DNA from: a virus
Taxonomy: Duplodnaviria > Heunggongvirae > Uroviricota > Caudoviricetes
Strand: one strand, 5' to 3'
DNA length: 41,742 nucleotides
Virus record (IMG/VR): IMGVR_UViG_2541047836_000006
A model generated the notes under the pieces. The model did not search any database. It worked only from the letters and a program-made list of their open reading frames with translations, and was not told where the DNA came from. A program made the position numbers and the translations under genes. Positions 1 to 18,245 of this stretch are shown here, in pieces. Within the stretch, counting starts at the first letter, position 1. Each line of letters begins with the position of its first letter.

Positions 1-1143
1 CTATGCTGTTTTGATATCTACGATAACCCAGTCTTTACCACGATCATCATTGTATCGGTCGGTCATTTTTCTGGATTTATGGCCTAACAACTTTTGCGTA
101 TCCAGACCCTGTTCCCGATATAACCGTTCTGACAGAGATCGCTGCTCATGAAATGTGGGCGCAGTTCCTTGCTCCCATTTTATGCCACATTTTTCCCTGG
201 CCTTTTTAAAAGCCGTTGTCAGAGTATTTGCAGAAACCTGGTCTCCTCTGTTTGCTTGAGAGGTAGTGTGACGGTAATGGACCAGATATTTACTAACAAC
301 AGCATCCCTGCACTGAGATATAACTTCACGAAGGGTAATATTCAGAGCATCGCATTTCAGGTTAAGCGGAATAGCAAGTTTTGAACCGGTTTTTTCCTGA
401 GTAATGTGCAACATGTCGTCCCAGATATCAGAGAATTTCAAATTGCAGATATCACCTAAACGTTGTCCAGTAACAAGAGCAAGTAGCATGCCGCATTTTA
501 AATAGGGCTGCCGTCTGCTTACGCTTTCAAATATTGCCTGCCATTCGGGCAGTGACAATCTTTGGCGGTTTACTCGATTTCGCGGTTGTTTTGTTGCCTG
601 CGCTGGGTTAAATCCTGGCGGAACATGTCCTGCGTGTTGTGCTTCTTTGAAGACGTCGATCAACACCATTCTCACGACTTGCGCCATCCTGTTATGACCT
701 TCAGCCTTTACAGCATCAATTATTTCGGCAATATCAAGTGCGGTAATATCCTTGAGGTGTTGCATTCCACAATGCTCACGGAAAAGACGAATGGGTTTGC
801 CTTTTTGCCGATAGGAGTTGGGTCTTAGTTCATTATGTTGCAGCCTGTCCTCCTGGATAGAAATATATTTATCAAGCCATTCTGTCACCGTAATTTCTGA
901 GCGCCTGCCTTTCATTCTTTCCAGACGCTCATTGACGCTTAATATTTGTCGGGTACGTTGTTCAGCAATAATGGTATTTGCTTCAGTAGCAACTTGTTTT
1001 GCTTCATTCTCATCAGTTCCTAAGCTATGAAAACGACCGGATAGTGGATGTTTGTATTGCCAATATACCTTTCCGGTTCGCTTATCTAATTTGCAATATA
1101 AATTGGGTATAGAGATTTTGTGAGATCGGGGTCTAGCAGCCAT
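1..1143 (-). CDS. int: Phage tyrosine integrase (lambda-family, not lambda Int itself)
   Basis: 380-aa ORF; C-terminal catalytic region (…TFHEQRSLSERLYREQG…LLGHKSRKMTDRYNDDRG…) typical of tyrosine recombinases; sits at prophage left end next to xis; start overlaps xis stop. Confidence 0.9.
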   Translation of the reverse strand: MAARPRSHKISIPNLYCKLDKRTGKVYWQYKHPLSGRFHSLGTDENEAKQVATEANTIIAEQRTRQILSVNERLERMKGRRSEITVTEWLDKYISIQEDRLQHNELRPNSYRQKGKPIRLFREHCGMQHLKDITALDIAEIIDAVKAEGHNRMAQVVRMVLIDVFKEAQHAGHVPPGFNPAQATKQPRNRVNRQRLSLPEWQAIFESVSRRQPYLKCGMLLALVTGQRLGDICNLKFSDIWDDMLHITQEKTGSKLAIPLNLKCDALNITLREVISQCRDAVVSKYLVHYRHTTSQANRGDQVSANTLTTAFKKAREKCGIKWEQGTAPTFHEQRSLSERLYREQGLDTQKLLGHKSRKMTDRYNDDRGKDWVIVDIKTA

Positions 1144-1369
1144 CAGCGATTATCCGTTGGAGTTTTGGGTTTGCGTTTATTGGGAGTTGCGGTTCTGCAA
1201 GCGTTCCTACAAAACGGGAATTTCGGTCAATCATCCAGTAGCGACCAACTTTTATAGCGGGTGGGGCCATCATTTTCCCTTGCGCGTATTTTTTCAGAAC
1301 TCGCTCACTTGGTGCTAAGTCCCCAAATTCTTCTTTAGCCCAGTCCTGTAAAGTGATTAGTCGAGACAT
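1133..1369 (-). CDS. xis: Excisionase (Xis/AlpA-like)
   Basis: 78-aa ORF immediately upstream of int; N-terminus MSRLITLQDWAKE resembles lambda Xis MYLTLQEWNAR; strong SD (AGGAGG) upstream of ATG at 1367-1369. Confidence 0.75.
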   Translation of the reverse strand: MSRLITLQDWAKEEFGDLAPSERVLKKYAQGKMMAPPAIKVGRYWMIDRNSRFVGTLAEPQLPINANPKLQRIIADGC

Positions 1370-1508
1370 TTGTCCTCCTCTTAGCTGCTGAGGGAGTTTG
1401 TGACCGATATATCTGACATGATATTAAGCTCATGGCAGGTACATCTCTTGACTGGTCATAGAGATAAATTTAATGCTGAGAAATGCAGTATTGAATTTAT
1501 CAATTTTT

Positions 1509-1748
1509 CTATTTCCTGCGTATGGCACGTAACTTCTTAATGTGTTCTGCCGTTTCGATCTCTTCTGCTATCCGATCTGCATCAGCTTTATTCACAGGTT
1601 CAAAGTCATGATTAAAGCGGAACATGCTGGCGATACATGTTCTGCCTTTTCGGATGTAGTGAACTTTGTTGTAGGTAGAACGCAGGATTTTGCAGGGAGT
1701 GCCGTGGTGGTCGACGTACCAGGTGTTAGGAAAAATGATTCTGAGCAT
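1509..1748 (-). CDS. Hypothetical early-left protein (occupies the position of lambda ea22/ea8.5)
   Basis: 79-aa ORF with SD GAGGTG 6 nt before ATG; no recognisable motif. Confidence 0.5.
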   Translation of the reverse strand: MLRIIFPNTWYVDHHGTPCKILRSTYNKVHYIRKGRTCIASMFRFNHDFEPVNKADADRIAEEIETAEHIKKLRAIRRK

Positions 1749-1795
1749 TTTTACACCTCAGTTGGACGATGTTGAAATTTGCTGCTTTGAGGCCA

Positions 1796-2014
1796 TCACA
1801 ATCCCCATTGTTTGTTCTTAAGTTCGATCTCCTCCTGGCAACTTGCACAAGTCCGACAACCCTGAACGACCAGGCGTCTTCGCTCATCTATCGGATCGCC
1901 ACACTCACAACAATGAGTGGCAGATACAGTCTGGTAGTTCAGACGACGCATTTTTATTGCTGTATTGCGCTGTAATTCTTCGATTTCTGATGCTGAATCA
2001 ATGATGTCTGCCAT
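1796..2014 (-). CDS. TraR/DksA-family C4 zinc-finger protein (lambda orf61-like)
   Basis: 72-aa ORF with CxxC…CxxC (…HCCECGDPIDERRRLVVQGCRTCASCQ…); DNA matches remembered lambda region upstream of exo. Confidence 0.7.
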   Translation of the reverse strand: MADIIDSASEIEELQRNTAIKMRRLNYQTVSATHCCECGDPIDERRRLVVQGCRTCASCQEEIELKNKQWGL

Positions 2015-2112
2015 CTTCCATTAATCCCTGAATTGTTGGTTAATACGCTTGAGGGTGAATGCGAATAATAAAAAAGGAGCCTGTAGCTCCCTGATGATTT
2101 TGCTTTTCATGT

Positions 2113-2412
2113 TCATCGCTCCTTAAAGACGCCGTTTAACATGCCGATCGCCAGGCTTAAATGAGTCGGTGTGAATCCCATCAGCGTTACCGTTTCGCGG
2201 TGCTTCTTCAGTACGCTACGGCAAATGTCATCGACGTTTTTATCCGGAAACTGCTGTCTGGCTTTTTTGATTTCAGAGTTAGCTTGACGGGCAATGCTGC
2301 GAAGGGCGTTTTTCTGCTGAGGTGTCACTGAACAAGCCCCATGCCGGAAAGCATAAGCACACAGAATATGAAGCCCGCCGCCAGAAAAATGCATTCTGTT
2401 GTTGTCATGCAA
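2113..2412 (-). CDS. Hypothetical lambda early-left protein (orf60a-region homolog); start uncertain
   Basis: ORF in track begins with TTG; alternative ATG at 2394 or GTG further in; DNA closely resembles lambda exo-proximal region. Confidence 0.4.
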   Translation of the reverse strand: MHDNNRMHFSGGGLHILCAYAFRHGACSVTPQQKNALRSIARQANSEIKKARQQFPDKNVDDICRSVLKKHRETVTLMGFTPTHLSLAIGMLNGVFKER

Positions 2413-2596
2413 GCTCTCTCTCGTTTGCCTCTGCTTTCGCCGCCATCATTTCCAGCTTTTGTGAAAGGGATGCGGCTAACGTATGAAATTCTTCGTCTGT
2501 TTCTGCTGGTATTGGCACAAACCTGACTCCAATTTGAGCAAGGCTATGTGCCATCTCAATGCTCGTTCTTAACTCAACAGGAGATGCTTTGTGCAT
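2405..2596 (-). CDS. Hypothetical lambda early-left protein (orf63-like)
   Basis: 63-aa ORF with ATG at 2594-2596; DNA matches lambda region just before exo. Confidence 0.55.
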   Translation of the reverse strand: MHKASPVELRTSIEMAHSLAQIGVRFVPIPAETDEEFHTLAASLSQKLEMMAAKAEANERELA

Positions 2597-2747
2597 ACAG
2601 CCCCTCGTTTATTATTTATCTCCTCAGCCAGCCGCTGGGCTTTCAGTGGATTTTGGATAACAGAAAGGCCGGGAAATACCCAGCCTCGCTTTGTAACGGA
2701 GTAGACGAAAGTGATCGCGCCTACCCGGATATTATCGTGAGGATGCG

Positions 2748-3428
2748 TCATCGCCATTGCTCCCCAAATACAAAACCAATTTCAGCCAGTGCCTCGTCCA
2801 TTTTTTCGATGAACTCCGGCACCATCTCGTCAAAACTCGCCATGTACTTTTCATCCCGCTCAACCACGACATAATGCAGTCCTTCACGCTTCATACGCGG
2901 GTCATAGTTGGCAAAGTACCAGGCATCTTTTCGTGTCACCCACATGCTGTACTGCACCTGGGCCATGTAAGCCGACTTTATGGCCTCGAAACCACCGAGC
3001 CGGAACTTCATGAAATCCCGGGAGGTAAACGGGCATTTCAGCTCAAGGCCATTGCCGTCACTGCATAAACCATCGGGAGAGCAGGCGGTGCGCATACTTT
3101 CGTCGCGATAGATGATCGGGGATTCAGTAACATTCACGCCGGAAGTGAATTCAAACAGAGTTCTGGCGTCGTTCTCGTACTGTTTTCCCCAGGCCAGCGC
3201 CTTAGCATTAACTTCCGGAGCCACACCGGTGCAAACCTCAGCCAGCAGGGTGTGGAAGTAGGACATTTTCATGTCAGGCCACTTCTTTCCTGAGCGGGGC
3301 TTTGCTATCACGTTGTGAACTTGTGAAGCGGTGATGACGCCGAGCCGTAATTTGTGCCACGCATCATCTCCCTGCTCGATAGCTCTCACGTCGATCCCGG
3401 TACGCTGCAGGATAATGTCCGGTGTCAT
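2748..3428 (-). CDS. exo: Lambda exonuclease (Red alpha)
   Basis: 226-aa protein [30 protein letters not shown]… essentially identical to remembered lambda Exo; ATGA overlap with bet. Confidence 0.97.
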
Positions 3429-4210
3429 GCTGCCACCTTCTGTTCAGTGGCTTTTTGTTTCAGGAATCCAAGAGCTTTCACTGCTTCGTCCTGTGTCAGT
3501 TCTGACGATGCACGAATGTCGCGGCGAAATATCTGGGAACAGAGCGGCAATAAGTCGTCATCCCATGTTTTATCCAGGGCGATCAGCAGAGTGTTAATCT
3601 CCTGCATGGTTTCATCGTTAACCGGAGTGATGTCGCGTTCCGGCTGACGTTCTGCAGTGTATGCGGTATTTTCGACAATGCGCTCGGCTTCATCCTTGTC
3701 ATAGATACCAGCAAATCCGAAGGCGAGACGGGCACACTGAATCATGGCTTTATGCCGTAACATCCGTTTGGGATGCGACTGCCACGGCCCCGTGATTTCT
3801 CTGCCTTCGCGAGTTTTGAATGGTTCGCGGCGGCATTCATCCATCCATTCGGTAACGCAGATCGGATGATTACGGTCCTTGCGGTAAATCCGGCATGTAC
3901 AGGATTCATTGTCCTGCTCAAAGTCCATGCCATCAAACTGCTGGTTTTCATTGATGATGCGGGACCAGCCATCAACGCCCACCACCGGAACGATGCCGTT
4001 CTGCTTATCAGGGAAGGCGTAAATTTCTTTCGTCCACGGATTAAGGCCGTACTGGTTGGCGACGATCAACAATGCGATGAACTGCGCATCGCTGGCATCA
4101 CCTTTAAATGCCGTCTGGCGAAGAGTGGTGATCAGTTCCTGTGGGTCGACAGAATCCATGCCGACACGTTCAGCCAGCTTCCCTGCCAGCGTTGCGAGTG
4201 CTGTACTCAT
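3425..4210 (-). CDS. bet: Bet single-strand annealing protein (Red beta)
   Basis: 261-aa protein [37 protein letters not shown]… matches lambda Bet. Confidence 0.97.
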
Positions 4211-4215
4211 CCGTT

Positions 4216-4632
4216 TTATACCTCTGAATCAATATCAACCTGGTGGTGAGCAATGGTTTCAACCATGTACCGGATGTGTTCTGCCATGCGCTCCTGAAAC
4301 TCAACATCGTCATCAAACGCACGGGTAATGGCTTTTTTGCTGGCCCCGTGGCGTTGCAAATGATCGATGCATAGCGATTCAAACAGGTGCTGGGGCAGGC
4401 CTTTTTCCATGTCGTCTGCCAGTTCTGCCTCTTTCTCTTCACGGGCGATCTGCTGGTAGTGACGCGCCCAGCTCTGAGCCTCAAGACGATCCTGAATGTA
4501 ATAAGCGTTCATGGCTGAACTCCTGAAATAGCTGTGAAAATATCGCCCGCGAAATGCCGGGCTGATTAGGAAAACAGGAAAGGGGGTTAGTGAATGCTTT
4601 TGCTTGATCTCAGTTTCAGTATTAATATCCAT
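4216..4632 (-). CDS. gam: Gam, RecBCD inhibitor
   Basis: 138-aa protein [61 protein letters not shown]… matches lambda Gam. Confidence 0.95.
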
Positions 4633-4730
4633 TTTTTATAAGCGTCGACGGCCTCACGAAACATCTTTTCATCGCCAATAAAAGTGGCGATAGTGAATTT
4701 AGTCTGGATAGCCATAAGTGTTTGATCCAT
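4587..4730 (-). CDS. kil: Kil (host cell-division inhibitor)
   Basis: 47-aa protein [47 protein letters not shown] from internal ATG (4728-4730) of the 89-aa track ORF; matches lambda Kil. Confidence 0.85.
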
Positions 4731-4863
4731 TTTTTGGGACTCCTGGCTGATTAAGTATGTCGATAAGGCGTTTCCATCCGTCACGTAATTTACGGGTGAT
4801 TCGTTCAAGTAAAGATTCGGAAGGGCAGCCAGCAACAGGCCACCCTGCAATGGCATATTGCAT
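4699..4863 (-). CDS. cIII: cIII (FtsH/HflB inhibitor, stabilises cII)
   Basis: Hand translation of minus strand from ATG at 4861-4863 gives [54 protein letters not shown] (54 aa), matching lambda cIII; absent from the ORF track because it is under 60 aa. Confidence 0.85.
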   Translation of the reverse strand: MQYAIAGWPVAGCPSESLLERITRKLRDGWKRLIDILNQPGVPKNGSNTYGYPD

Positions 4864-4935
4864 GGTGTGCTCCTTATTTATACATAACGAAAAACGCCTC
4901 GAGTGAAGCGTTATTGGTATGCGGTAACGCCGCGC

Positions 4936-5304
4936 TCAGGCGGCTTTGATAGTCATATCATCTGAATCAAATATTCCTGATGTATCGATATCGGTAATTC
5001 TTATTCCTTCGCTACCATCCATTGGAGGCCATCCTTCCTGACCATTTCCATCATTCCAGTCGAACTCACACACAACACCATATGCATTTAAGTCGCTTGA
5101 AATTGCTATAAGCAGAGCATGTTGCGCCAGCATGATTAATACAGCATTTAATACAGAGCCGTGTTTATTGAGTCGGTATTCAGAGTCTGACCAGAAATTA
5201 TTAATCTGGTGAAGTTTTTCCTCTGTCATTACGTCATGGTCGATTTCAATTTCTATTGATGCTTTCCAGTCGTAATCAATGATGTATTTTTTGATGTTTG
5301 ACAT
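4936..5304 (-). CDS. ea10: Ea10 (lambda Ssb-like early protein)
   Basis: 122-aa ORF at the lambda ea10 position; length and sequence consistent with lambda Ea10. Confidence 0.8.
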   Translation of the reverse strand: MSNIKKYIIDYDWKASIEIEIDHDVMTEEKLHQINNFWSDSEYRLNKHGSVLNAVLIMLAQHALLIAISSDLNAYGVVCEFDWNDGNGQEGWPPMDGSEGIRITDIDTSGIFDSDDMTIKAA

Positions 5305-5320
5305 CTATTCATATCCTCAC

Positions 5321-5350
5321 AGATAAAAAATCGCCCTCACATTGGAGGGC
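5321..5350 (-). terminator. Rho-independent terminator in the leftward (pL) operon, upstream of ea10
   Basis: Minus-strand hairpin GCCCTCCAATGTGAGGGC followed by a T-run (plus strand: aaaaaatcGCCCTCacattgGAGGGC). Confidence 0.6.
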
Positions 5351-5564
5351 AAAGAAGATTTCCAATAATCAGAACAAGTCGGCTCCTGTTTAGTTACGAG
5401 CGACATTGCTCAGTGTATTCACTCGTTGGAATGAATACACAGTGCAGTGTTTATTAGTATGCCTGTCTTTTAACCACATCAGGCTCGGTGGTTCTCGTGT
5501 ACCCCTACAGCGAGAAATCGGATAAACTCTATTCACCCCTACAGAGAGCAAAAGAGAAACGCCG

Positions 5565-6146
5565 ATGAACAACTCATGGTGGCAGGAACTAATGCATTTT
5601 TTCCTGCAAGGAATGACACTTAAACAGTTGATTCATATGCTAATCATCCTGATCATATTGATTATTGTTATGCCTGTAAGCGTAAAAGAATGGATAAACC
5701 TGCATAATCCAGAAATCCTTCCTCATTACTGGATGTATTACATCCTGTTGTTTTGCGTTAGCTATGTGCTTAACGGCGTTGTTAATTCCGCTTATCACGC
5801 TGTGACTGTAAGAATTGAGATATTCGCTGCTCAGAAGCGCAAATCTAAAGAAGAGAAATACGTGCAAGATTTGTTTGATTCGTTAACTCTTGGAGAAAGA
5901 GCGTATTTGGCATTCGCTGTAGCCGCTAATAACCAGCTAAAGACAGAAAAGGGAAGCCCTGAAGCAATCTCATTGCTCGAAAAAGGGCTTCTTATTCGGG
6001 TACCTTCTGCTACTGGATATCCTGAAATCGACCGTTTTGTTATCCCGGAACGCTATAGAAATGAGTGCTACATTAGGTTTGCTGGGAAGAAAGACAGTCT
6101 TATGGATGAACTTATCGCTCAGGATAAGCATGGCAAAAACAAGTAA
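5565..6146 (+). CDS. sieB: Superinfection exclusion protein B (P22-type SieB)
   Basis: 193-aa membrane protein MNNSWWQELMHFFLQGMTLKQLIHMLIILIILIIVMPVSVKEW… resembles P22 SieB rather than lambda SieB; same position as lambda sieB. Confidence 0.85.
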   Translation: MNNSWWQELMHFFLQGMTLKQLIHMLIILIILIIVMPVSVKEWINLHNPEILPHYWMYYILLFCVSYVLNGVVNSAYHAVTVRIEIFAAQKRKSKEEKYVQDLFDSLTLGERAYLAFAVAANNQLKTEKGSPEAISLLEKGLLIRVPSATGYPEIDRFVIPERYRNECYIRFAGKKDSLMDELIAQDKHGKNK

Positions 6147-6162
6147 TTAGCAAATGAATTTA

Positions 6163-6471
6163 TCATCTCGCCGTCAGTTGTTTTGATTTCCGGTAGCCTG
6201 CCGCGTAAATAGCTACGTTTGGCAGGCAAACACTTCCACTGCATTCATCTACTTTCTTGCAGCGAAGGCTTCCGAGTGATATTGCTTTTTCAGAAAGGCT
6301 TAACCGCTTTCTCGGGTCTTCCTGAACAGGTTCCTCACTGTCTGTGCCGAAGATCGAATCGATGATGTTGCAGATGGAATCACGCTCGATGGCCAGCTTT
6401 CTGCGCCGCTCATGACGGCGAGTTTTGGCATTTCCTGCAAATGTTGATTTTCCGTACACGATTACCGTCAT
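6163..6471 (-). CDS. N: N-type transcription antiterminator (P22 gene 24-like)
   Basis: Arginine-rich motif GNAKTRRHERRRKLAIERD matching the P22 N boxB-binding peptide; likely start is internal ATG at 6469-6471 (MTVIVYGKSTFAGNAK…) with SD GAGGA; cognate nutL lies upstream. Confidence 0.8.
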   Translation of the reverse strand: MTVIVYGKSTFAGNAKTRRHERRRKLAIERDSICNIIDSIFGTDSEEPVQEDPRKRLSLSEKAISLGSLRCKKVDECSGSVCLPNVAIYAAGYRKSKQLTAR

Positions 6472-6589
6472 GATGTTTTCCTCATGTGAAATGGCTTTGG
6501 TGGTGATGCGCCAGATGCTGATCTTCTGGTTGCTGTCGTTACTGCTGCAATTCACATCACCCCAAACCCATCTCGTTTGGTATCTGTTC

Positions 6590-6623
6590 GCGCTTTGTCA
6601 GCGCATCATCGAAGTTAAAGAGC
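6590..6623 (-). promoter_or_regulatory. nutL: nutL site (boxA-like GCTCTTTAAC and boxB hairpin GCGCTGACAAAGCGC)
   Basis: Minus-strand boxB at 6590-6604 is identical to the P22 nutL boxB RNA; boxA-like element at 6614-6623 lies 5' of boxB in the transcript. Confidence 0.7.
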
Positions 6624-6659
6624 CTGCCAATCTGTTCCGTTTGGCTGCCAGCGTCCTGC

Positions 6660-6720
6660 TGATGGCGATTATAATGAACCAATAGTTCGATATTATCAAG
6701 AACTATAAGTACGAATTGTT
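6660..6720 (-). promoter_or_regulatory. Putative pL promoter/OL operator region
   Basis: Minus-strand TATAAT at 6668-6673 with an imperfect -35 (TTGATA, 20-nt spacer); AGTACG half-site at 6708-6713 shared with the OR palindrome; location inferred from the nutL/N arrangement. Confidence 0.3.
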
Positions 6721-6880
6721 TGTGGTTCATTAACTTAATGAGATATGTTTTTGATATGTAAAGGAATTTATTTTTGTAAAGATTGAAGATTGGTCAGTAG
6801 GAGAGAAAGAATTGTTTGCTGGCGTGTTAGTTCGTGGGTTAGCACATGTGCGGATGTTAAATAAGGTAGACGATCGTGAG

Positions 6881-6908
6881 GAAAAGAAAAACCGGCGCTG
6901 AGGCCGGG
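6881..6908 (-). terminator. Rho-independent terminator ending the cI accessory-gene transcript (tIMM-like)
   Basis: Minus-strand hairpin CCGGC…GCCGG (6892-6907) followed by a T-rich run, 6 nt downstream of the stop of the 6914..7813 gene. Confidence 0.6.
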
Positions 6909-6913
6909 TATAA

Positions 6914-7813
6914 TTATTTGATTATTTCTTTTATAAAGACTTCTTTCGGTTGGTATTTTTTATCTGATGATTTGAGCTGGTACGTTATTGTTATATCAGC
7001 ACGTACAGAAAATTTACCTGCAAAATCTGATGGGTTTACGTTGGGGCCAAGAACCATATTTACTCTTCGATCTATTAATCCAGGGATAACAGCAGCCCAA
7101 CCTTTCTCTGGATTGTCGAGGTCTAATGCACGGATTTCAACATCAACATCAAAATGATCCTGAGTATATGACTCTGGTGTGAAGACAACTTCAGTTGGGG
7201 CTTTTTTAATGGTTTCAGCGGGAATGGTCACTGTACCACCCCCTGTACCTATGACCATCGTAGATCCTTCGTCTGCCCTAGCTGGGGCAAGCGTCTTAAT
7301 GGAACTTTTGGCAAGAGTCTTCTTATTGGTTACCGTGCTTTCTATGATTGCTTGAAGACGGTCAGGTGAAATATTAGCCTCACCGGCACCAATATTGATG
7401 ATTGTATTGTTATTTGCTTCAAAGTGGGAGGTGTTGCTTGGAGCCATAGCCTTAGTTGCTAGAACTAAGCCATATCCAACCAGACCAATAACAACAGCAC
7501 CAACGAGAGCGTTTCTCATTTTCCCATTTCCGATCTTTGCATGAGCGCCAGCAAGAAACTTGTCCATTTCTTCTTGGCTACCAAAGAGGAGTTTAATAAC
7601 AATATCTTCATAAAGGCTTCCTGCTTCTAATCGCGCAACATGCACCGATATATCAAGGATATTAGCCCCTGTCAGTTCCTGCAAAACACCTTCTGATTGT
7701 TTTGCGATGGCCTCCCACCCTTGAAGGGAGGTAATCACATCTTTGATGCTTACAGGTTCTTTAGTTGAATAATATATGTTTTCGGTAAAGGTTAAAGATA
7801 ATTCTTGGGACAT
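6914..7813 (-). CDS. Uncharacterised single-pass membrane protein in the immunity-region accessory slot (rexAB position); candidate superinfection-exclusion/abortive-infection protein
   Basis: 299-aa ORF with SD GAGGG upstream of ATG (7811-7813); central hydrophobic helix ALVGAVVIGLVGYGLVLATKAMA; co-oriented with and downstream of cI; own terminator; AT-rich; no similarity to any protein I recognise. Confidence 0.8.
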   Translation of the reverse strand: MSQELSLTFTENIYYSTKEPVSIKDVITSLQGWEAIAKQSEGVLQELTGANILDISVHVARLEAGSLYEDIVIKLLFGSQEEMDKFLAGAHAKIGNGKMRNALVGAVVIGLVGYGLVLATKAMAPSNTSHFEANNNTIINIGAGEANISPDRLQAIIESTVTNKKTLAKSSIKTLAPARADEGSTMVIGTGGGTVTIPAETIKKAPTEVVFTPESYTQDHFDVDVEIRALDLDNPEKGWAAVIPGLIDRRVNMVLGPNVNPSDFAGKFSVRADITITYQLKSSDKKYQPKEVFIKEIIK

Positions 7814-7942
7814 CCGAGCCCTCGCTGTTTCTTTCGATTTGCTGTGTTAAGCTAATATTTTAATATCCATGTTTCTGTTTGCTTGCAGTGTGTTTCTCAC
7901 CACCATCCAAACGTACTGGTTACTAGCTATGTGATGATGAAG

Positions 7943-8650
7943 TCATGAACTTTTCAGCCATTCCCTGGCCTCGATGTCATCTAGGTGGCGAGATTGCTTC
8001 AGAATACCAGCTACATACTCCACCTTTGCTACTTGATGATAAGGCAACGTTATTGGCCTGTGGTCTTGGTTGATGCTTGTAAATTGGTATTCTCCGTCTC
8101 TGTCATAGCCAAGAACCTTGATCATGTTGTGCCCTTCAATGGTTCTGACAAACACCTCATCACCTGGGAATACTTTGGTGTTAGGCTCAATGAGTACATA
8201 TTCTCCTGATTTTATTCTGGGCCACATGCTGTCTCCTTTTACACGAAGACCAAAGGCATCTGGATCATCGCTATAAATCTTGAGCCACCCATCGCGCTCT
8301 TCGGTCATCTCGATGGCACCATCAACACCAAGAATTGCCTCACCAACCACGCGCACTAACCCTTTTTTTAATTTGCCAACAATTGAAAAAGTATCTTCAT
8401 CATTCGCTCCATTTAACGAAGTGCCGTGCTGAAGCCAAACAACATCAACGTTTAGAAATTTCGCAAGCGCATTCATTTTTTCCTGGCGTGGTAAAGACTC
8501 AGCATTAAACCATTTGCTAACGCCTTTGGACGAAAGAGAAAGGGCACGGGCTATGGCCATTCCCCTACCATGTTCATCAAGACCAGCTTCTTTACAGGCT
8601 TGCGCTAGCCGCTGGGCGAATTCTTTGCGCACTTTTTCATTCTGAACCAT
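7943..8650 (-). CDS. cI: CI-type prophage repressor (HTH N-domain plus LexA/S24-like self-cleaving C-domain)
   Basis: 235-aa ORF divergent from cro; C-terminal …FGLRVKGDSMWPRIKSGEYVLIEP… carries the S24 peptidase Ser/Lys pattern (GDSM…K); not the lambda or P22 repressor sequence. Confidence 0.9.
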   Translation of the reverse strand: MVQNEKVRKEFAQRLAQACKEAGLDEHGRGMAIARALSLSSKGVSKWFNAESLPRQEKMNALAKFLNVDVVWLQHGTSLNGANDEDTFSIVGKLKKGLVRVVGEAILGVDGAIEMTEERDGWLKIYSDDPDAFGLRVKGDSMWPRIKSGEYVLIEPNTKVFPGDEVFVRTIEGHNMIKVLGYDRDGEYQFTSINQDHRPITLPYHQVAKVEYVAGILKQSRHLDDIEAREWLKSS

Positions 8651-8728
8651 GAGTACGATACTAAAGCACTTGCAAAAACTTTCAGTTCAACCATAATGCG
8701 TACTGAAAGTACGAAAAAGGACATTCCT
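8651..8728. promoter_or_regulatory. OR/pR-pRM divergent control region with operator-like palindrome
   Basis: Candidate pR -35 TTGCAA (8670-8675) and -10 CATAAT (8692-8697); palindrome CGTACTGAAAGTACG at 8699-8713; inverted repeat ACTTTCAGT/ACTGAAAGT; extra AGTACG half-site at 8652-8657. Confidence 0.5.
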
Positions 8729-8956
8729 ATGCAAAATCTTGATGAGCCGATTAAAGGTGTCGGCATCCCTGAAGTTGCGAAGGCTTGTGGAGTTAGCGAA
8801 AGGGCTGTCTATAAGTGGCTCAAAAACGGCTTCCTCCCTAAGACTGAGTTTTTTGGGAAAACGAAATACGCATCAAAAATCGAAGAGATTTCTGGTGGCA
8901 AATATCAAGCAAGCGAAATGCTTGAAATAAGCAAAAAGAACCTTCTGGCAGCATAA
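8729..8956 (+). CDS. cro: Cro-like HTH regulator
   Basis: 75-aa product from ATG at 8729 (SD AAAAAGG 8 nt upstream); HTH motif GIPEVAKACGVSERAVYKW; first gene rightward of the OR region. Confidence 0.8.
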   Translation: MQNLDEPIKGVGIPEVAKACGVSERAVYKWLKNGFLPKTEFFGKTKYASKIEEISGGKYQASEMLEISKKNLLAA

Positions 8957-8963
8957 GTAACAC

Positions 8964-8998
8964 CGCTCTTTATCAATCTGCACCGCCGACAACGCGGT
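8964..8998 (+). promoter_or_regulatory. nutR: nutR site (boxA CGCTCTTTA and boxB hairpin ACCGCCGACAACGCGGT)
   Basis: boxA consensus at 8964-8972; boxB stem-loop at 8982-8998 matches the P22 nutR boxB. Confidence 0.7.
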
Positions 8999-9062
8999 AA
9001 CTAATTAAGAACTCATCGAAAGATGCGTATTAGTGATTATTTACCTATGGAAATAGTAAGAA

Positions 9063-9362
9063 ATGGAACAAACAAATTACAGCAAACTATCACAGCGCGA
9101 CGTTGATCGCGCAGAAACAGATTTACTTATCAACCTGTCAACGCTTACTCAGCGCGGTCTGGCAAAGATGATTGGCTGTCATGAATCGAAGATAAGCAGA
9201 ACAGACTGGAGGTTTATAGCTTCGGTCTTGTGTGCTTTTGGCATGGCATCAGACATCAGTCCGATTAGCAGAGCTTTTAAGTATGCGCTTGATGAAATCA
9301 CCAATAAAAAACGCCCGGTGTGCAAGACCGAGCGTTCTGAACAAATCCAGATGGAGTTCTGA
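9063..9362 (+). CDS. cII: cII transcriptional activator
   Basis: 99-aa protein ending …TNKKRPVCKTERSEQIQMEF, matching the lambda CII C-terminus; located between cro and O. Confidence 0.9.
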   Translation: MEQTNYSKLSQRDVDRAETDLLINLSTLTQRGLAKMIGCHESKISRTDWRFIASVLCAFGMASDISPISRAFKYALDEITNKKRPVCKTERSEQIQMEF

Positions 9363-9383
9363 GGTCATTACTGGATCTATCAA
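9307..9383 (-). ncRNA. oop: oop antisense RNA (position inferred from lambda)
   Basis: cII 3' end and cII-O intergenic DNA match lambda, where the 77-nt oop RNA is leftward and overlaps the cII 3' end; coordinates transferred by offset, not verified. Confidence 0.4.
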
Positions 9384-9394
9384 CAGGAGTCATT

Positions 9395-10294
9395 ATGACA
9401 AATACAGCAAAAATACTCAACTTCGGCAGAGGTAACTTTGCCGGACAGGAGCGTAATGTGGCAGATCTCGATGATGGTTACGCCAGACTATCAAATATGC
9501 TGCTTGAGGCTTATTCGGGCGCAGATCTGACCAAGCGACAGTTTAAAGTGCTGCTTGCCATTCTGCGTAAAACCTATGGGTGGAATAAACCAATGGACAG
9601 AATCACCGATTCTCAACTTAGCGAGATTACAAAGTTACCTGTCAAACGGTGCAATGAAGCCAAGTTAGAACTCGTCAGAATGAATATTATCAAGCAGCAA
9701 GGCGGCATGTTTGGACCAAACAAAAACATCTCAGAATGGTGCATCCCTCAAAACGAGGGAAAATCCCCTAAAACGAGGGATAAAACATCCCTCAAATTGG
9801 GGGATTGCTATCCCTCAAAACAGGGGGACACAAAAGACACTATTACAAAAGAAAAAAGAAAAGATTATTCGTCCGAGAATTCTGGCGAATCCTCTGACCA
9901 GCCAGAAAACGATCTTTCTGTGGTTAAACCGGATGCTGCAATTCAGAGCGGCAGTAAGTGGGGAACAGCAGAAGACCTGACCGCCGCAGAGTGGATGTTT
10001 GACATGGTGAAGACCATCGCGCCATCAGCCAGAAAACCGAATTTTGCTGGGTGGGCTAACGATATCCGCCTGATGCGTGAACGTGACGGACGTAACCACC
10101 GCGATATGTGTGTGCTTTTCCGCTGGGCCTGCCAGGACAACTTCTGGTCCGGTAACGTGCTGAGTCCGGCCAAACTCCGCGACAAGTGGACCCAGCTCGA
10201 AATCAACCGTAACAAGCAACAGGCTGGCGTGACAGCCGGAAAACCAAAACTCGACCTGACAAACACTGACTGGATTTACGGGGTGGATCTATGA
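9395..10294 (+). CDS. O: Replication initiator O
   Basis: 299-aa protein MTNTAKILNFGRGNFAGQERNVADLDDGYARLSNMLLEAY… matches lambda O; contains the ori iterons. Confidence 0.95.
   Translation: MTNTAKILNFGRGNFAGQERNVADLDDGYARLSNMLLEAYSGADLTKRQFKVLLAILRKTYGWNKPMDRITDSQLSEITKLPVKRCNEAKLELVRMNIIKQQGGMFGPNKNISEWCIPQNEGKSPKTRDKTSLKLGDCYPSKQGDTKDTITKEKRKDYSSENSGESSDQPENDLSVVKPDAAIQSGSKWGTAEDLTAAEWMFDMVKTIAPSARKPNFAGWANDIRLMRERDGRNHRDMCVLFRWACQDNFWSGNVLSPAKLRDKWTQLEINRNKQQAGVTAGKPKLDLTNTDWIYGVDL
9743..9828 (+). repeat. ori-lambda iterons (four ~18-bp direct repeats, O-binding sites) followed by an AT-rich region
   Basis: ATCCCTCAAAACGAGGGA / TCCCCTAAAACGAGGGA / ATCCCTCAAATTGGGGGA / ATCCCTCAAAACAGGGGGA inside the O coding sequence, followed by aaaagaaaaaagaaaag. 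Confidence 0.85.
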
Positions 10295-10992
10295 AAAACA
10301 TCGCCGCACAGATGGTTAACTTTGACCGTGAGCAGATGCGTCGGATCGCCAACAACATGCCGGAACAGTACGACGAAAAGCCACAGGTACAGCAGGTAGC
10401 GCAGATCATCAACGGTGTGTTCAGCCAGTTACTGGCAACTTTCCCGGCGAGCCTGGCTAACCGTGACCAGAACGAACTGAACGAAATCCGCCGCCAGTGG
10501 GTTCTGGCTTTCCGGGAAAACGGGATCACCACAATGGAACAGGTTAACGCAGGAATGCGCGTAGCCCGTCGGCAGAATCGACCATTTCTGCCATCACCCG
10601 GGCAGTTTGTTGCATGGTGCCGGGAAGAAGCATCCGTTATCGCCGGACTGCCAAACGTCAGCGAGCTGGTTGATATGGTTTACGAGTATTGCCGGAAGCG
10701 AGGCCTGTATCCGGATGCGGAGTCTTATCCGTGGAAATCAAATGCGCACTACTGGCTGGTTACCAACCTGTATCAGAACATGCGGGCCAATGCGCTTACT
10801 GATGCGGAATTACGCCGTAAGGCCGCAGATGAGCTTGTCCATATGACTGCGAGAATTAACCGTGGTGAGGCGATCCCTGAACCAGTAAAACAACTTCCTG
10901 TCATGGGCGGTAGACCTCTAAATCGTGCACAGGCTCTGGCGAAGATCGCAGAAATCAAAGCTAAGTTCGGACTGAAAGGAGCAAGTGTATGA
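10291..10992 (+). CDS. P: Replication protein P (DnaB helicase loader)
   Basis: 233-aa protein MKNIAAQMVNFDREQMRRIANNMPEQYDEKPQVQQ… matches lambda P; ATGA overlap with O. Confidence 0.95.
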   Translation: MKNIAAQMVNFDREQMRRIANNMPEQYDEKPQVQQVAQIINGVFSQLLATFPASLANRDQNELNEIRRQWVLAFRENGITTMEQVNAGMRVARRQNRPFLPSPGQFVAWCREEASVIAGLPNVSELVDMVYEYCRKRGLYPDAESYPWKSNAHYWLVTNLYQNMRANALTDAELRRKAADELVHMTARINRGEAIPEPVKQLPVMGGRPLNRAQALAKIAEIKAKFGLKGASV

Positions 10993-11279
10993 CGGGCAAA
11001 GAGGCAATTATTCATTACCTGGGGACGCATAATAGCTTCTGTGCGCCGGACGTTGCCGCGCTAACAGGCGCAACAGTAACCAGCATAAATCAGGCCGCGG
11101 CTAAAATGGCACGGGCAGGTCTTCTGGTTATCGAAGGTAAGGTCTGGCGAACGGTGTATTACCGGTTTGCTACCAGGGAAGAACGGGAAGGAAAGATGAG
11201 CACGAACCTGATTTTCAAGGAGTGTCGCCAGAGTGCCGCGATGAAACGGGTATTGGCGGTATATGGAGTTAAAAGATGA
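10989..11279 (+). CDS. ren: Ren (resistance to Rex exclusion)
   Basis: 96-aa protein MTGKEAIIHYLGTHNSFCAPDVAALTGATVTSINQAAAKMARAGLLVIEGK… matches lambda Ren. Confidence 0.9.
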   Translation: MTGKEAIIHYLGTHNSFCAPDVAALTGATVTSINQAAAKMARAGLLVIEGKVWRTVYYRFATREEREGKMSTNLIFKECRQSAAMKRVLAVYGVKR

Positions 11280-11352
11280 CCATCTACATTACTGAGCTAA
11301 TAACAGGCCTGCTGGTAATCGCAGGCCTTTTTATTTGGGGGAGAGGGAAGTC

Positions 11353-11793
11353 ATGAAAAAACTAACCTTTGAAATTCGATCTCCAGCACATCAGCAAAAC
11401 GCTATTCACGCAGTACAGCAAATCCTTCCAGACCCAACCAAACCAATCGTAGTAACCATTCAGGAACGCAACCGCAGCTTAGACCAAAACAGGAAGCTAT
11501 GGGCCTGCTTAGGTGACGTCTCTCGTCAGGTTGAATGGCATGGTCGCTGGCTGGATGCAGAAAGCTGGAAGTGTGTGTTTACCGCAGCATTAAAGCAGCA
11601 GGATGTTGTTCCTAACCTTGCCGGGAATGGCTTTGTGGTAATAGGCCAGTCAACCAGCAGGATGCGTGTAGGCGAATTTGCGGAGCTATTAGAGCTTATA
11701 CAGGCATTCGGTACAGAGCGTGGCGTTAAGTGGTCAGACGAAGCGAGACTGGCTCTGGAGTGGAAAGCGAGATGGGGAGATCGGGCTGCATGA
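11353..11793 (+). CDS. ninB: NinB (Orf-family recombination mediator)
   Basis: 146-aa protein MKKLTFEIRSPAHQQNAIHAVQQILPDP… matches lambda NinB; SD GGGAGAGGGAAG. Confidence 0.9.
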   Translation: MKKLTFEIRSPAHQQNAIHAVQQILPDPTKPIVVTIQERNRSLDQNRKLWACLGDVSRQVEWHGRWLDAESWKCVFTAALKQQDVVPNLAGNGFVVIGQSTSRMRVGEFAELLELIQAFGTERGVKWSDEARLALEWKARWGDRAA

Positions 11794-12317
11794 CTATCAA
11801 ATCAAATACGCCAGCACACGACAAGGACTGCTGGCAAACGCCGCTTTGGCTTTTTGATGCACTGGATATTGAGTTTGGATTCTGGCTGGATTCGGCAGCG
11901 AGCGACAAAAATGCTCTGTGTGCTCACTGGCTAACTGAGGCCGACGACGCGCTCAATTCTGAGTGGGTAAGCCACGGTGCAATCTGGAATAACCCACCGT
12001 ACAGCAATATCAGGCCGTGGGTGGAAAAAGCCGCTGAGCAGTGCATACAACAGCGACAGACGGTAGTTATGCTTGTGCCAGAGGATATGTCAGTCGGATG
12101 GTTCAGCAAGGCTCTGGAGAGTGTCGACGAAGTTCGCATTATCACTGATGGACGGATTAATTTTATCGAACCATCGACAGGGCTGGAGAAGAAGGGAAAC
12201 AGCAAAGGCTCCATGCTGCTGATTTGGCGACCGTTCATCAGTCCTCGACGGATGTTTACTACCGTATCCAAAGCGGCATTGATGGCGATCGGGCAGGGCG
12301 TCAGGAGGGCGGCATGA
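11790..12317 (+). CDS. Phage DNA N6-adenine methyltransferase (Dam-like, orphan)
   Basis: 175-aa product from ATG overlapping the ninB stop; catalytic motif NPPY (…[14 protein letters not shown]…); no adjacent restriction endonuclease. Confidence 0.8.
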
Positions 12318-12490
12318 GGCGACAGCGACGAAGTTTCACCGACATCATCTGCGAAAACTGCAAATACCTTCCAACGAAACGCTCCAGAAATAAACGCAAG
12401 CCAATCCCAAAAGAATCTGACGTAAAAACCTTCAATTACACAGCTCACCTGTGGGATATCCGGTGGCTAAGATATCGTGCGAGGAAATGA
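12314..12490 (+). CDS. ninE: NinE
   Basis: 58-aa product [58 protein letters not shown] matching lambda NinE; ATGA overlap with methyltransferase stop. Confidence 0.85.
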
Positions 12491-12834
12491 CAATGGATTA
12501 TTCACAGTTAAGTGATTTTGAAATTAACAGAATGGTAGGAGACATAATTTTTAAAGGCCTTTGGGCAAGTAAACCGGAAACATCAGGGAATAACACCAAC
12601 AAATGGTATTACGGAAATGCTGATACAACTTTTGAGCCATTAAATCATTTGCCTGACTACTGCAATGATCCGAGCGCTTCATGGCCGATTATTGAGAAAT
12701 ACAGGATTTCTATCTTAGACCAGTTAACTGAATGGTGTGTGGATGCAAAAGGCGTAAGCCCAATATTTGATACCAGACCTCTCCGCGCCGCCATTATTGT
12801 CTTTCTCCTGATGCAGGAGGCCAATAATGCTTAG
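12487..12834 (+). CDS. Hypothetical nin-region protein
   Basis: 115-aa product from ATG at 12487 ([19 protein letters not shown]…), overlapping the ninE stop; no recognised motif. Confidence 0.55.
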
Positions 12835-13021
12835 CCCATCTCAATCCCTTCAATACCTGAAAGGAAGCATAGAGCGGGCTTCAATGTGCACAGAGTGGAT
12901 TCTATCTAGGTTTAGCGCATACAGAAGATTGCCGGTAAAGGGCATGCCAAGCAAGTCGATGCTGCATATGCAAAAGAATGCGCGCGGGAAGGTATGGCGA
13001 GAACGCAGGTTATCTGGCTGA
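12827..13021 (+). CDS. NinF-like N-terminus fused to divergent sequence (possible mosaic or frameshifted remnant)
   Basis: First ~20 aa [21 protein letters not shown] resemble lambda Nin[22 protein letters not shown], then diverge; a different frame (12916-13044) encodes …[28 protein letters not shown], resembling a DLP12 YbcO-family C-terminus. Confidence 0.35.
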
Positions 13022-13040
13022 AAGAGGGGGTAATTAAGGC

Positions 13041-13403
13041 GTGAATACTTACCACATCACACTACCCTGGCCTCCGAGCAATAATCGCTATTATCGCCAT
13101 AATCGCGGGCGCACGCACGTCAGCGCAGAGGGGCAGGCATACCGCGATAACGTCGCCCGAATCATTAAAAACGCAATGCTGGATATCGGCCTGGCGATGC
13201 CTGTGAAAATCCGCATTGAGTGCCACATGCCGGATCGCCGTCGCCGTGACCTGGATAATCTGCAAAAAGCCGCTTTTGACGCACTCACCAAAGCAGGTTT
13301 CTGGCTGGATGATGCTCAGGTCGTTGATTACCGCGTTGTGAAGATGCCTGTTACCAAAGGTGGGAGGCTGGAATTGACCATCACCGAAATGGGGAATGAA
13401 TGA
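13041..13403 (+). CDS. rusA: RusA Holliday-junction resolvase
   Basis: 120-aa protein [50 protein letters not shown]… near-identical to remembered DLP12 RusA; GTG start. Confidence 0.95.
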
Positions 13404-13540
13404 TGTTTGAGTTTTATATGGCAGAACGTCTTCGCCACCGCTGGGTGCGTCTGCGCTTATATCGTTTCCCCGGTTCTGTTTTGACCGATTACCGAATACT
13501 GAAGAATTACGCCAAAACACTGACAGGAGCAGGAGTATGA
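13400..13540 (+). CDS. ylcG: Small protein YlcG-like
   Basis: 46-aa [49 protein letters not shown] overlapping the rusA stop; matches remembered DLP12 ylcG; below the ORF-track cutoff. Confidence 0.7.
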
Positions 13541-13625
13541 AGTCAGAGATAACAATCAACTAATACTGTTTTGCTGATTTTTGCTTGTAATTGGCGTTCT
13601 GGTCTGATTTTTGTGGAGTAAGTTG

Positions 13626-14003
13626 ATGCGTGATATTCAGATGGTTCTTGAGCGTTGGGGAGCGTGGGCGGCTAATAATCATGAAGATGTGACCTGGTCG
13701 TCCATTGCCGCCGGTTTTAAGGGATTAATTCCTTCAAAAGTAAAATCTCGCCCGCAATGTTGTGACGATGACGCGATGATCATTTGCGGGTGCATGGCCC
13801 GTCTGAAAAATAACAACAGCGATTTGCATGATTTGTTAGTGGACTATTATGTCGGCGGCATGACTTTTATGGCGCTTGCGCGTAAGCATGGTAGATCTGA
13901 TTGTTGGATTGGCAGGATGCTCCAAAAAGCTGAGGGCGTAGTGGAGGGCATGCTGATGGTGTTGGATCTCAGATTGGAGATGGATGCTGATTGTTTGAGA
14001 TAA
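13626..14003 (+). CDS. Q: Late-gene antiterminator Q (QuuD/phage-21-type)
   Basis: 125-aa product from ATG at 13626 (SD GGAGTAAG); [33 protein letters not shown]… with Cys-rich zinc motif ([14 protein letters not shown]); matches remembered DLP12 QuuD. Confidence 0.85.
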
Positions 14004-14102
14004 TTAAAGGAAAAGTTGCTGTCTGGTTATCATTAGACTAATGTTTCAAATGTTAGAATCGCAACGTAGTTATGATCATATAACAGCTTGTTCCCTGATT
14101 TA

Positions 14103-14131
14103 GCCAGCCTCCCCAAAGGCTGGTTTTTTTT
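14103..14131 (+). terminator. Rho-independent terminator downstream of Q (tR'-like)
   Basis: Hairpin CCAGCC-tccccaaa-GGCTGG followed by TTTTTTTT (14124-14131). Confidence 0.65.
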
Positions 14132-14159
14132 CTAATAAGTATCAATCCGGTTAGGTATT

Positions 14160-14684
14160 TTATTGTTTGACCCATAATAGTTCATTGACATTGAATCCCA
14201 ATTTTTGAGCAGTACGCACATAGTCTGCTTTTACATTATCTGGAATAGTTGGAGTCCGTGCCAGAATCCATAGGTATTCTCTGTTCGGACCACTGACAAG
14301 AGCATACTTATACTCATCATCCAGTTTGATTACATTATAGCCACCATAGAAGGGGCCAAAAAACGAAACCTTCAACGCTGCAGTTGTATTATCTCCTGTA
14401 AAGTATGCTTTACCTTCGCTCTCGCTCCATTTGTTTTTCGTTGGGTCATATCCACGATTAAGTACACTAATCCCTCCGTCGTTCCGTTTCCCATAAGTGG
14501 CGCTGACCTGTTCCAGACCACGTTCAAATCGGTTCTCAAGCCGAGCTATTTCATACCATTTTCCGAGGTAGCGGTTGGTGTCAAAATTTGTAATCGGCTG
14601 CACACCTTTAGGTGGTGTCGGGGCCTTACATGCTATCAGAGTGAAAGAGAGTGCAATGCCAGTCAACACAGGCCATAACTTCAT
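14160..14684 (-). CDS. Blc-like bacterial lipocalin, outer-membrane lipoprotein (moron)
   Basis: 174-aa ORF; signal peptide with lipobox LIAC (MKLWPVLTGIALSFTLIACKAP); lipocalin-like motif GKWYEIARLENRFERG; AT-rich; opposite strand to flanking late genes. Confidence 0.8.
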   Translation of the reverse strand: MKLWPVLTGIALSFTLIACKAPTPPKGVQPITNFDTNRYLGKWYEIARLENRFERGLEQVSATYGKRNDGGISVLNRGYDPTKNKWSESEGKAYFTGDNTTAALKVSFFGPFYGGYNVIKLDDEYKYALVSGPNREYLWILARTPTIPDNVKADYVRTAQKLGFNVNELLWVKQ

Positions 14685-14876
14685 AATATATCCTGTACTT
14701 TTGATAGTTGAGAGTAAGTATTAAAGATAGATGATTACTACCGATCACCTAAAGAACTTTCCTACTATATTAGGAATAGTCCATAACAAAAAAATTGTCA
14801 GTGATGACGGCAGAAAGGCAGTTTAGGTCGTGTACTACACTGTTAACCTGTTAATGAATTAGTCAAGGGGTAGGCA

Positions 14877-15836: not shown

Positions 15837-16154
15837 GCGTTTGGAATGCACCAACAAGATGATTTTCTCCTTAGAGAATGTTTACAATCGTAAAAACTTC
15901 ACTATGATATCTATAGTTGTACAGTTTGTAAAAAAATTCGGTTCATGCTTAAGGTAATGTTAATATGTTAATTAATGATTAATAATCAAGCAAGCCAAAA
16001 ATAGTTCTGTTTAATCTAGTATTACATAAATATTTTAAAGAAAATATCAAAGTTCATGATGATATAATGAGATTTTTCTCATTGAAAATATGGCAATTTT
16101 AATATTTCCACCTATACTTACTTAACTCAAATCTAATTATGTCAGGTGGATGGT

Positions 16155-16886: not shown

Positions 16887-17053
16887 CGTGATGCGTTTTG
16901 ATGATTTTGTAATTTTCATATTTGATGATTATATGATGCTTTCAGCTACGCCAGAATAATCGCTGGCGTTTTTCTTTTCTAATGTAACTTCTGTATCTTT
17001 CCCTCTTTCATTCCAAACCGTGTACACCATCCGTTATTCGCGGAGGTGAGGCT

Positions 17054-17269
17054 ATGAAATCCATGGACAAGTTAACAACGGGCATTGCCTACGGCACCTC
17101 TGCAGGCAGTGCTGGCTACTGGTTTTTACAGTGGCTTGATCAGGTCAGTCCGTCACAGTGGGCGGCGATTGGAGTGCTTGGAAGCCTTGTGTTGGGTTTT
17201 CTCACTTATCTGACAAACCTTTATTTCAAGATTAAAGAAGATAAGCGTAAGGCTGCGAGAGGTGAATAA
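17054..17269 (+). CDS. S: Holin, class II pinholin (S21-type) with dual-start motif
   Basis: 71-aa protein [71 protein letters not shown] matches phage 21 S; two Met starts (codons 1 and 4) for antiholin/holin; SD GGAGGTGAGG. Confidence 0.9.
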
Positions 17270-18224: not shown

Positions 18225-18227
18225 AGC

Positions 18228-18245
18228 TGCCCATATCGATGGGCA
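18228..18245. terminator. Palindromic hairpin between convergent Rz and bor (likely bidirectional terminator)
   Basis: Perfect inverted repeat TGCCCAT-atcg-ATGGGCA, 4 nt after the Rz stop and 10 nt after the bor stop. Confidence 0.55.

Follow-up and report, generated by a model that had tools for sequence, protein, structure and literature searches.

A mosaic early-control region in a lambdoid coliphage with 933W-type, P22-class and VT1-Sakai-type components

The stretch of DNA analysed here (the window, 41,742 nucleotides of IMG/VR virus record IMGVR_UViG_2541047836_000006) contains the early genes of a lambdoid phage together with the sites that control them. The segment that drew attention to it, positions 5565-6623, carries sieB, the antiterminator gene N and the nutL site, and was originally predicted to be a P22-type block embedded in an otherwise lambda-like left arm. 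All features named in the original prediction are present where it placed them, the reading frames of the region are intact, the signals follow the canonical order, and a promoter and terminator scan finds promoters and terminators at the expected places. The mosaic map of the region was constructed by pairwise BLAST and sliding identity against lambda, P22, HK140, VT1-Sakai, the Stx2a phage Stx2_EH0505 (LC616031, hereafter EH0505) and 933W. The components of the region are, from left to right:

1819-5455, minus strand: left-arm genes of the pL operon, i.e., orf61/63/60a, exo, bet, gam, kil, cIII and ea10
5456-5459: AGTA, four bases in place of lambda ral and orf28 (lambda 34056-34395), from alignment to lambda
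5460-5544, plus strand: conserved island of 85 bp located 5' of sieB, common to lambda (94%), P22, HK140 and VT1-Sakai
5565-6146, plus strand: sieB, superinfection exclusion protein B, P22-type allele (Pfam SieB, PF14163, E 3.2e-25; phrog_1301, E 2e-123)
6163-6471, minus strand: N (Pfam N_peptide, PF25694, E 4.9e-41, 139.7 bits against a cutoff of 27.9, residues 1-102)
6163-6253, minus strand: C-terminal tail module of N (ending in CLPNVAIYAAGYRKSKQLTAR), an allele common to VT1-Sakai, HK140 and 933W
6254-6291, minus strand: crossover interval of 38 bp inside N, encoding KAISLGSLRCKK, from DNA alignment
6292-6471, minus strand: N-terminal module of N, 95% DNA identity to Stx2a phages
6562-6580, minus strand: small hairpin in the N leader, directly downstream of boxB-L and conserved in P22 (stem from scan)
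6590-6623, minus strand: nutL (boxB 6590-6604, spacer 6605-6613, boxA 6614-6623)
6651-6663, minus strand: conserved pL transcript start ATCAGCAGGACGC, from a four-way alignment; boundary between P22-type nutL and 933W-type pL/OL
6671-6715, minus strand: pL (-35 at 6694-6699, -10 at 6671-6676) overlapping 933W-type OL operators (promoter scan, repeats shared with OR, alignment to 933W pL/OL)
6892-6907, minus strand: terminator of the cI (pRM) transcript, equivalent of 933W tM (terminator scan; aligned with the annotated 933W tM)
6914-7813, minus strand: gene for 299 amino acids between cI and the terminator, in the rexAB/stk position (phrog_4506, unknown function, E 1e-170)
7943-8650, minus strand: cI repressor, 933W type (232/235 residues identical to 933W cI; HTH and Peptidase_S24 domains)
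8643-8713: OR3-OR2-OR1 with pRM and pR, 933W type (pR 8670-8697; coordinates transferred from the 933W annotation, pR also found by scan)
8729-8956, plus strand: cro, 933W type (75/75 residues identical to 933W Cro)
8964-8998, plus strand: nutR (boxA CGCTCTTTA 8964-8972, boxB 8982-8998)
9063-9362, plus strand: cII (Pfam Phage_CII), 933W-like to about 9297 (residues 1-78, 96% identical to 933W cII) and lambda-like at its 3' end, from 9298; the genes O, P, ren and ninB after it are lambda-like

Positions 1-19300 of the window, which include the whole of the segment under study, are 100% identical in nucleotide sequence to 11 deposited phage genomes, among them Escherichia phage 1H12 (NC_049947, genus Jouyvirus), Lambda_2E9, 4B5, 2G7a and six "ev" isolates (ev087, ev245, ev203, ev058, ev110 and ev066). 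Consequently, the analysis concerns a phage that has already been sequenced and annotated. The 1H12/Lambda_2E9 group consists of temperate coliphages from infant faeces, and several lambda-like isolates were described as almost identical to each other (Mathieu et al. 2020, PMC6969025). The sequence of the 1H12 group does not differ from that of the window, i.e., it is the same phage, and the differences lie in annotation: the deposited records describe N only as "N-like" or "putative regulatory protein", leave the nut sites unmarked, and call an open reading frame antisense to the N leader that is probably spurious.

N is the first gene of the pL operon, with nutL before it and a second nut site after cro. 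Its start codon at 6469-6471 is an ATG preceded by a GAGGA ribosome-binding site, and the protein also matches phrog_271 (E 5.5e-43). Over residues 1-42 it is identical to P22 gp24 at 40 of the 42 positions; the overall identity is 71%, and that of the middle and tail is 25-62%. The P22 gene-24 arginine-rich motif GNAKTRRHERRRKLAIERD, which had been predicted for this protein, is found at residues 13-32 (encoded at 6376-6435). Residues 14-31 correspond to the P22 N peptide NAKTRRHERRRKLAIERDT, the structure of which was solved bound to GCGCUGACAAAGCGC (PDB 1A4T; PMC11480772), with 18 of 19 residues identical and the last position changed from T to S. A structure search with the full-length N returned nothing relevant, only a chance match at E 0.24; the library minimum is 20 residues, and the 1A4T peptide, 19 residues as published, is probably too short for inclusion.

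The modular construction of N becomes apparent in an alignment of eight N proteins. The head of the window protein, made up of the arginine-rich motif and ~50 residues after it, falls in a group with P22, phage L and EH0505, whereas VT1-Sakai, HK140 and 933W share its tail CLPNVAIYAAGYRKSKQLTAR but carry other heads, and in the nutL of each of the first two the boxB sequence is quite different. In the 120 best N homologues found when public databases were searched with the protein, P22-type heads occur with both tail classes, in Escherichia as well as in Salmonella, and the junction invariably lies directly after KAISLxxxRxKK. A precedent comes from the comparison of phage L with P22 gp24, where the N-terminal 75 residues and the nut sites are common, the C-terminus is completely different, and the proteins are interchangeable (PMC8022706; Casjens and colleagues). 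N proteins have three interaction regions, namely for RNA, NusA and RNA polymerase (PMC3526286), and the modular N of the window fits both this organisation and the phage L/P22 precedent. From the latter one would expect this N to be interchangeable with P22 gp24.

The neighbouring SieB is 84% identical to the P22 protein, 99% to that of VT1-Sakai and 20% to that of lambda, which agrees with the resemblance to P22 SieB noted originally. Its internal Met25 (5637), which aligns with the esc start of P22, is conserved, and the island 5460-5544 coincides with the place where P22 has the promoter and RNA start of sieB (promoter 29690-29727 in the P22 annotation).

The nut sites were compared as units consisting of boxA, a 9-nt spacer and boxB, following the nut features of the P22 record. 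In these terms nutL is identical to the annotated P22 nutL at 34 of 34 positions and nutR to P22 nutR at 32 of 34. The minus-strand boxB-L GCGCTGACAAAGCGC is, as predicted, the P22 nutL boxB; it has a single match in the window, where 0.10 matches are expected even with 2 mismatches allowed, and chance was rejected on this shuffle expectation. The prediction also holds for nutR, where boxB-R ACCGCCGACAACGCGGT is identical to that of P22. The features that define the P22 class, i.e., boxB-L GCGCUGACAAAGCGC, boxB-R ACCGCCGACAACGCGGU and boxA at the P22 spacing, are thus all found. In isolation boxB-L folds into a 5-bp stem with a GACAA loop (-7.1 kcal/mol), and the isolated hairpins fold as expected. 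In 56-nt contexts the boxB hairpins give z-scores of -1.2 to -1.4, which are not statistically exceptional; because the hairpins are only 15-17 nt long, unremarkable z-scores are expected and were not used as evidence.

An important qualification is that 933W-type phages, whose N is different, have the boxB-L sequence as their nutL boxB, and therefore boxB-L alone is not diagnostic of P22. The 933W nutR boxB has the same GACAA loop as well. The 933W-type nut sites differ in lacking a consensus boxA at the P22 distance and in having an extra hairpin 5' of boxB. The P22 class is recognisable only from the full boxA-spacer-boxB unit. An alignment that includes 933W, EH0505 and P22 identifies nutR as the core of a ~80-bp P22-type cassette (~8968-9045) that replaces the 933W nutR and extends from the boxA region just past the cro stop codon to just short of the cII start. 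A comparative genomics paper on Stx phages (PMC8136144) does not classify N or nut types.

The repressor genes are of yet another kind. As predicted, cI and cro match neither lambda nor P22 (~20% identity to each). The OR region differs from that of 933W at 2 of 91 aligned positions, OL is closely similar to 933W, and the cI/cro/OR set is the well-studied immunity of phage 933W (imm933W). The 299-aa gene next to cI has no PADLOC match and no Pfam match above threshold, and is absent from 933W and EH0505, leaving a gap in the matches to both.

When each part of the region is assigned to its nearest relatives, the following map is obtained:

1819-6291 (left arm, sieB, last third of N): collinear with VT1-Sakai, 97.8% overall and 98-100% over 5300-6250
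6254-6780 (first two thirds of N, nutL, pL/OL): Stx2a phages, 93-95%
6780-7915 (299-aa gene): in neither 933W nor EH0505
7915-9358 (cI, cro, nutR, whole cII): Stx2a phages, 97%
9298 onwards (from inside cII through O, P, ren and ninB): lambda, 98.7%

The near-identity of exo through ea10 to lambda that had been anticipated is confirmed at 97.5% over 1819-5455, and the identity to 933W is the same. The two recombination joints proposed originally, one near 5305-5565 and one between cro and cII, do not agree with the map. In the phage's own lineage no joint near 5305-5565 is needed, given the collinearity with VT1-Sakai from 1819 to 6291. VT1-Sakai has the same AGTA arrangement and is 98-100% identical across 5456-5459, and the discontinuity arises only relative to lambda, from which ral and orf28 are missing and the sieB allele switches at ~5545, directly after the conserved island. 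As for the second joint, lambda homology picks up not between cro and cII but inside cII, so the statement that cII, O and P revert to lambda is correct for O and P and incorrect for cII, which is lambda-like only from 9298. Within 5565-6623 the sole joint is one that had not been predicted. The match to VT1-Sakai and HK140, at 98-100% DNA identity in the N tail, ends at 6291 and the match to EH0505 starts at 6254, and a crossover is therefore placed within the 38-bp stretch between them, which is common to N alleles with different heads and different tails. The joints of the region fall in short conserved islands, namely the pL transcript start, the N linker, boxA and the cII start.

One reading of these data is that sieB, N and nutL form a single block recently taken from P22 or a close relative into a lambda genome, with the two joints just mentioned. 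The N head, nutL and nutR are indeed of the P22 class, and the 5' half of sieB is 92-100% identical to P22 DNA. Nevertheless, P22 DNA compared with positions 5460-6666 has an identity of only ~80%, distributed very unevenly (84-92% in the 5' half of N, ~50% at its 3' end), and the similarity is lost at pL/OL; other Salmonella phages reach at most 88-90% DNA identity over partial coverage of the block. An identity above 95% across the block, as for a recent transfer of P22 (Lederbergvirus) DNA, was thus not found. E. coli phages are closer, with VT1-Sakai at 98-100% over 5300-6291 and Stx2a phages at 93-97% over 6254-6780 and 7915-9358, and both the joint inside N and the return of lambda homology at 9298 are at odds with a single insertion. 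We rejected a recent direct P22 origin on these alignments and regard the reading as highly improbable; what remains of it is the P22 class and the mosaic character of the region, not one P22 block with 80% identity to P22 where E. coli phages have 93-100%. The abrupt changes of nearest relative might superficially suggest an assembly chimera or a defective prophage remnant, for which nothing specific speaks. Given the intact frames, the canonical order of signals, the 11 independently deposited genomes of plaque-forming isolates that are 100% identical over the region, and the presence of 6292-6640 at >=99% identity in 150 complete E. coli genomes, the probability of such an artefact or remnant is negligible, and chimerism was rejected on the number of identical independent records. 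We conclude that the early-control region very probably belongs to a natural lambdoid coliphage and that homologous recombination assembled it, at short conserved islands, from a 933W-type core, a P22-class N/nut set and a VT1-Sakai-type pL operon. The class assignments of the original prediction stand, and its account of the origin and of the number and positions of the joints was wrong or incomplete.

In seven phages whose cI/cro are of the 933W type, N belongs to the 933W/H-19B type and nutL and nutR are their own: six of them (933W, Stx2 phage 86, P27, phi345, phiXuzhou21 and PhiR12_4) have a 127-aa N and cI identity of at least 98.7%, and Salmonella SF6, a cI relative at 87%, has a related 120-aa N. 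The window and EH0505 have the same cI-OR-cro but a P22-type N head, nutL and nutR. The 933W core therefore seems to exist in two antitermination flavours that share the GACAA loop, with nutR exchanged in concert with N. Between nutR and N lie 2.4 kb of 933W-type DNA, so that two extra crossovers are required for nutR to be exchanged, and the claim that N-nut specificity travels with N is supported in a sharper form, i.e., nutR was exchanged separately, based on concordance of nutR and N in ~10 genomes. N and both nut sites would have to match, and would therefore be inherited as a set across an unrelated repressor module. We suggest tentatively, as a possibility rather than an expectation, that selection for matched N and nut sites acts at a level beyond the boxB loop, e.g. 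on the boxA/spacer/stem architecture or through a host-factor need. Hitch-hiking or shared ancestry, with either N working on either nut site and the cassette difference neutral, seems to us unlikely. It has to accommodate the two extra crossovers, the concordance of all ~10 genomes and the differing nut architecture upstream of boxB in the 933W type, even though it draws some support from the identity of the 933W nutL boxB to that of P22 and the window, the shared loop of the 933W nutR boxB, and the resemblance of the 933W N motif GNSRSRRRERLK to GNAKTRRHERRRK. If selection on matching is the right explanation, the two flavours would offer a naturally isogenic pair in which the determinants of N specificity can be tested.

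The way the mosaic region would operate can be outlined from the lambda/P22 paradigm. In the absence or inactivity of the 933W-type repressor, pL and pR would fire, and the nascent RNAs would carry boxA and the GACAA-loop boxB hairpin. The arginine-rich helix of N would bind boxB and, with host Nus factors, render RNA polymerase resistant to terminators, so that this N would mediate Nus-dependent antitermination. Leftward transcription would then pass candidate terminators at 5331-5352 and 4893-4912, and rightward transcription would run on into cII-O-P. The sieB gene lies on the other strand and has a conserved promoter region of its own; it would allow a lysogen to exclude other phages by abortive exclusion.

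Comparison with individual relatives shows how the parts are distributed. P22 shares the N arginine-rich motif, both boxB sequences, all 34 positions of nutL and the convergent sieB-N layout; it differs in its own c2, cro and operators and in having ral, orf78, orf87 and gene 17 to the left. In 933W (and Stx2 phage 86, P27 and phi345), cI (99%), Cro (100%), OR, the pL/OL operators, tM, cII residues 1-78 and the N C-terminal tail are like those of the window, whereas the 127-aa N has an H-19B-type head, nutL and nutR are built differently around the same GACAA boxB loop, stk and three further genes stand in place of the 299-aa gene, and sieB is absent. The Stx2_EH0505 group (LC616031 and others) is similar in the N head, nutL, pL/OL, cI, cro, P22-type nutR and cII (93-97% DNA identity) and differs in the cargo between OL and cI, the left arm, the replication genes and a lambda-like N C-terminal tail (..GRQKMKLGSKPLI; ..RKPRSEMGVTCVGRQKMKLGSKPLI). 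VT1-Sakai and HK140 match sieB and the last third of N at 98-100%, and the match of VT1-Sakai extends over the entire left arm from 1819, where ral is likewise missing; their N heads are phage 21-type and HK620-type, respectively, each with its own boxB, and their cI/cro are different. The joint inside N has its precedent in gene 24 of phages L and P22, which are Salmonella phages, in contrast to the E. coli lineage considered here; the window uses the same joint with a tail choice opposite to that of EH0505.

The region is an ordinary, textbook-style case of lambdoid phage mosaicism, in which each component falls in a known family and the exact sequence is published. Intragenic mosaicism of N and matched N-nut sets are established knowledge, and current understanding is unchanged by these results. 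The only point that appears mildly new, from sequence comparison of ~10 genomes, is the concerted exchange of N with nutL and of the nutR mini-cassette around a constant 933W core. The region can nevertheless serve as a clean worked example of a protein and two distant RNA targets kept as a matched set, and it illustrates at base resolution that lambdoid phages shuffle parts of genes (N head versus tail) and tiny regulatory cassettes (nutR).

The combination of immunity and antitermination seen here is common to Stx2a-converting phages, and hence this harmless gut coliphage would be heteroimmune or homoimmune towards toxin phages, with which it could potentially recombine. The DNA of the N head and nutL (6292-6640) occurs in 266 of 5426 complete E. 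coli genomes (~5%), and the P22-type N head is found in 131 phage records, including 57 Salmonella, 47 Stx2a-converting and 13 Escherichia phages.

On the sieB side of the region, the lambda genes ral and orf28 (340 bp) are both absent from the window and are replaced by the sequence AGTA at positions 5456-5459. Exactly the same arrangement is present in phage VT1-Sakai, with AGTA in place of the missing ral and orf28, whereas HK140 retains ral. The sieB promoter region and the 5' half of the gene (5450-5800) are 92-100% identical to P22 DNA and the 3' half (5800-6146) is 70-88% identical, a gradient within one gene that is unusually sharp for two phages of different hosts, Salmonella and E. 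coli. The other features considered here are as follows.

4699-4863, minus strand: cIII, lambda-type, with an intact reading frame
6473-6685, plus strand: 70-aa "FIG00644188 hypothetical protein", as annotated in the record of Escherichia phage 1H12 (NC_049947)
6562-6580, minus strand: 6-bp hairpin (CCAAAC..GTTTGG) in the N leader, directly downstream of the nutL boxB
6914-7813, minus strand: 299-aa gene between cI and the cI-operon terminator
9063-9362, plus strand: cII, hybrid

At the far side of the immunity region, cII resembles the 933W protein over residues 1-78 (96%) and the lambda protein over its last ~20 residues. The Stx2a-converting phage Stx2_EH0505 (LC616031) has the same hybrid cII 3' end, and since this end is common to both phages, the joint is older than their split.

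The slot filled by the 299-aa gene is occupied by rexAB in lambda and by stk together with three genes in 933W. The gene matches phrog_4506 (E 1e-170), which is labelled as unknown function; a PADLOC search returned no matches and a Pfam search gave none above threshold. We consider it a candidate for an exclusion or defence gene expressed from the prophage. The encoded protein has a hydrophobic segment in its middle.

Several existing gene calls in this part of the window deserve comment. On the strand opposite N, the 70-aa reading frame overlaps the start of that gene as well as its leader and nutL; the call in the 1H12 record is most likely a false one. Some database entries give N as 130 aa from a GTG start at 6555, which lies downstream of boxB; this is probably a wrong extension. 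The 1H12 RefSeq record leaves cIII unannotated, an extended kil being the sole call there. The leader hairpin, which is kept in both P22 and EH0505 and resembles a CCAAAG..CTTTGG element of 933W-type leaders, may function in N processing or translational control.

The boxA consensus CGCTCTTTA has a second exact copy in the late/lysis region (17568-17576, plus strand); 2 matches were found in the window versus 0.3 expected. This copy is probably a chance occurrence. In EH0505 the 3' end of cI is present twice (5198-5516 and 9122-9440), the extra copy being partial, 94% identical to window positions 7915-8233 and located ~4 kb from the full cI of that phage.
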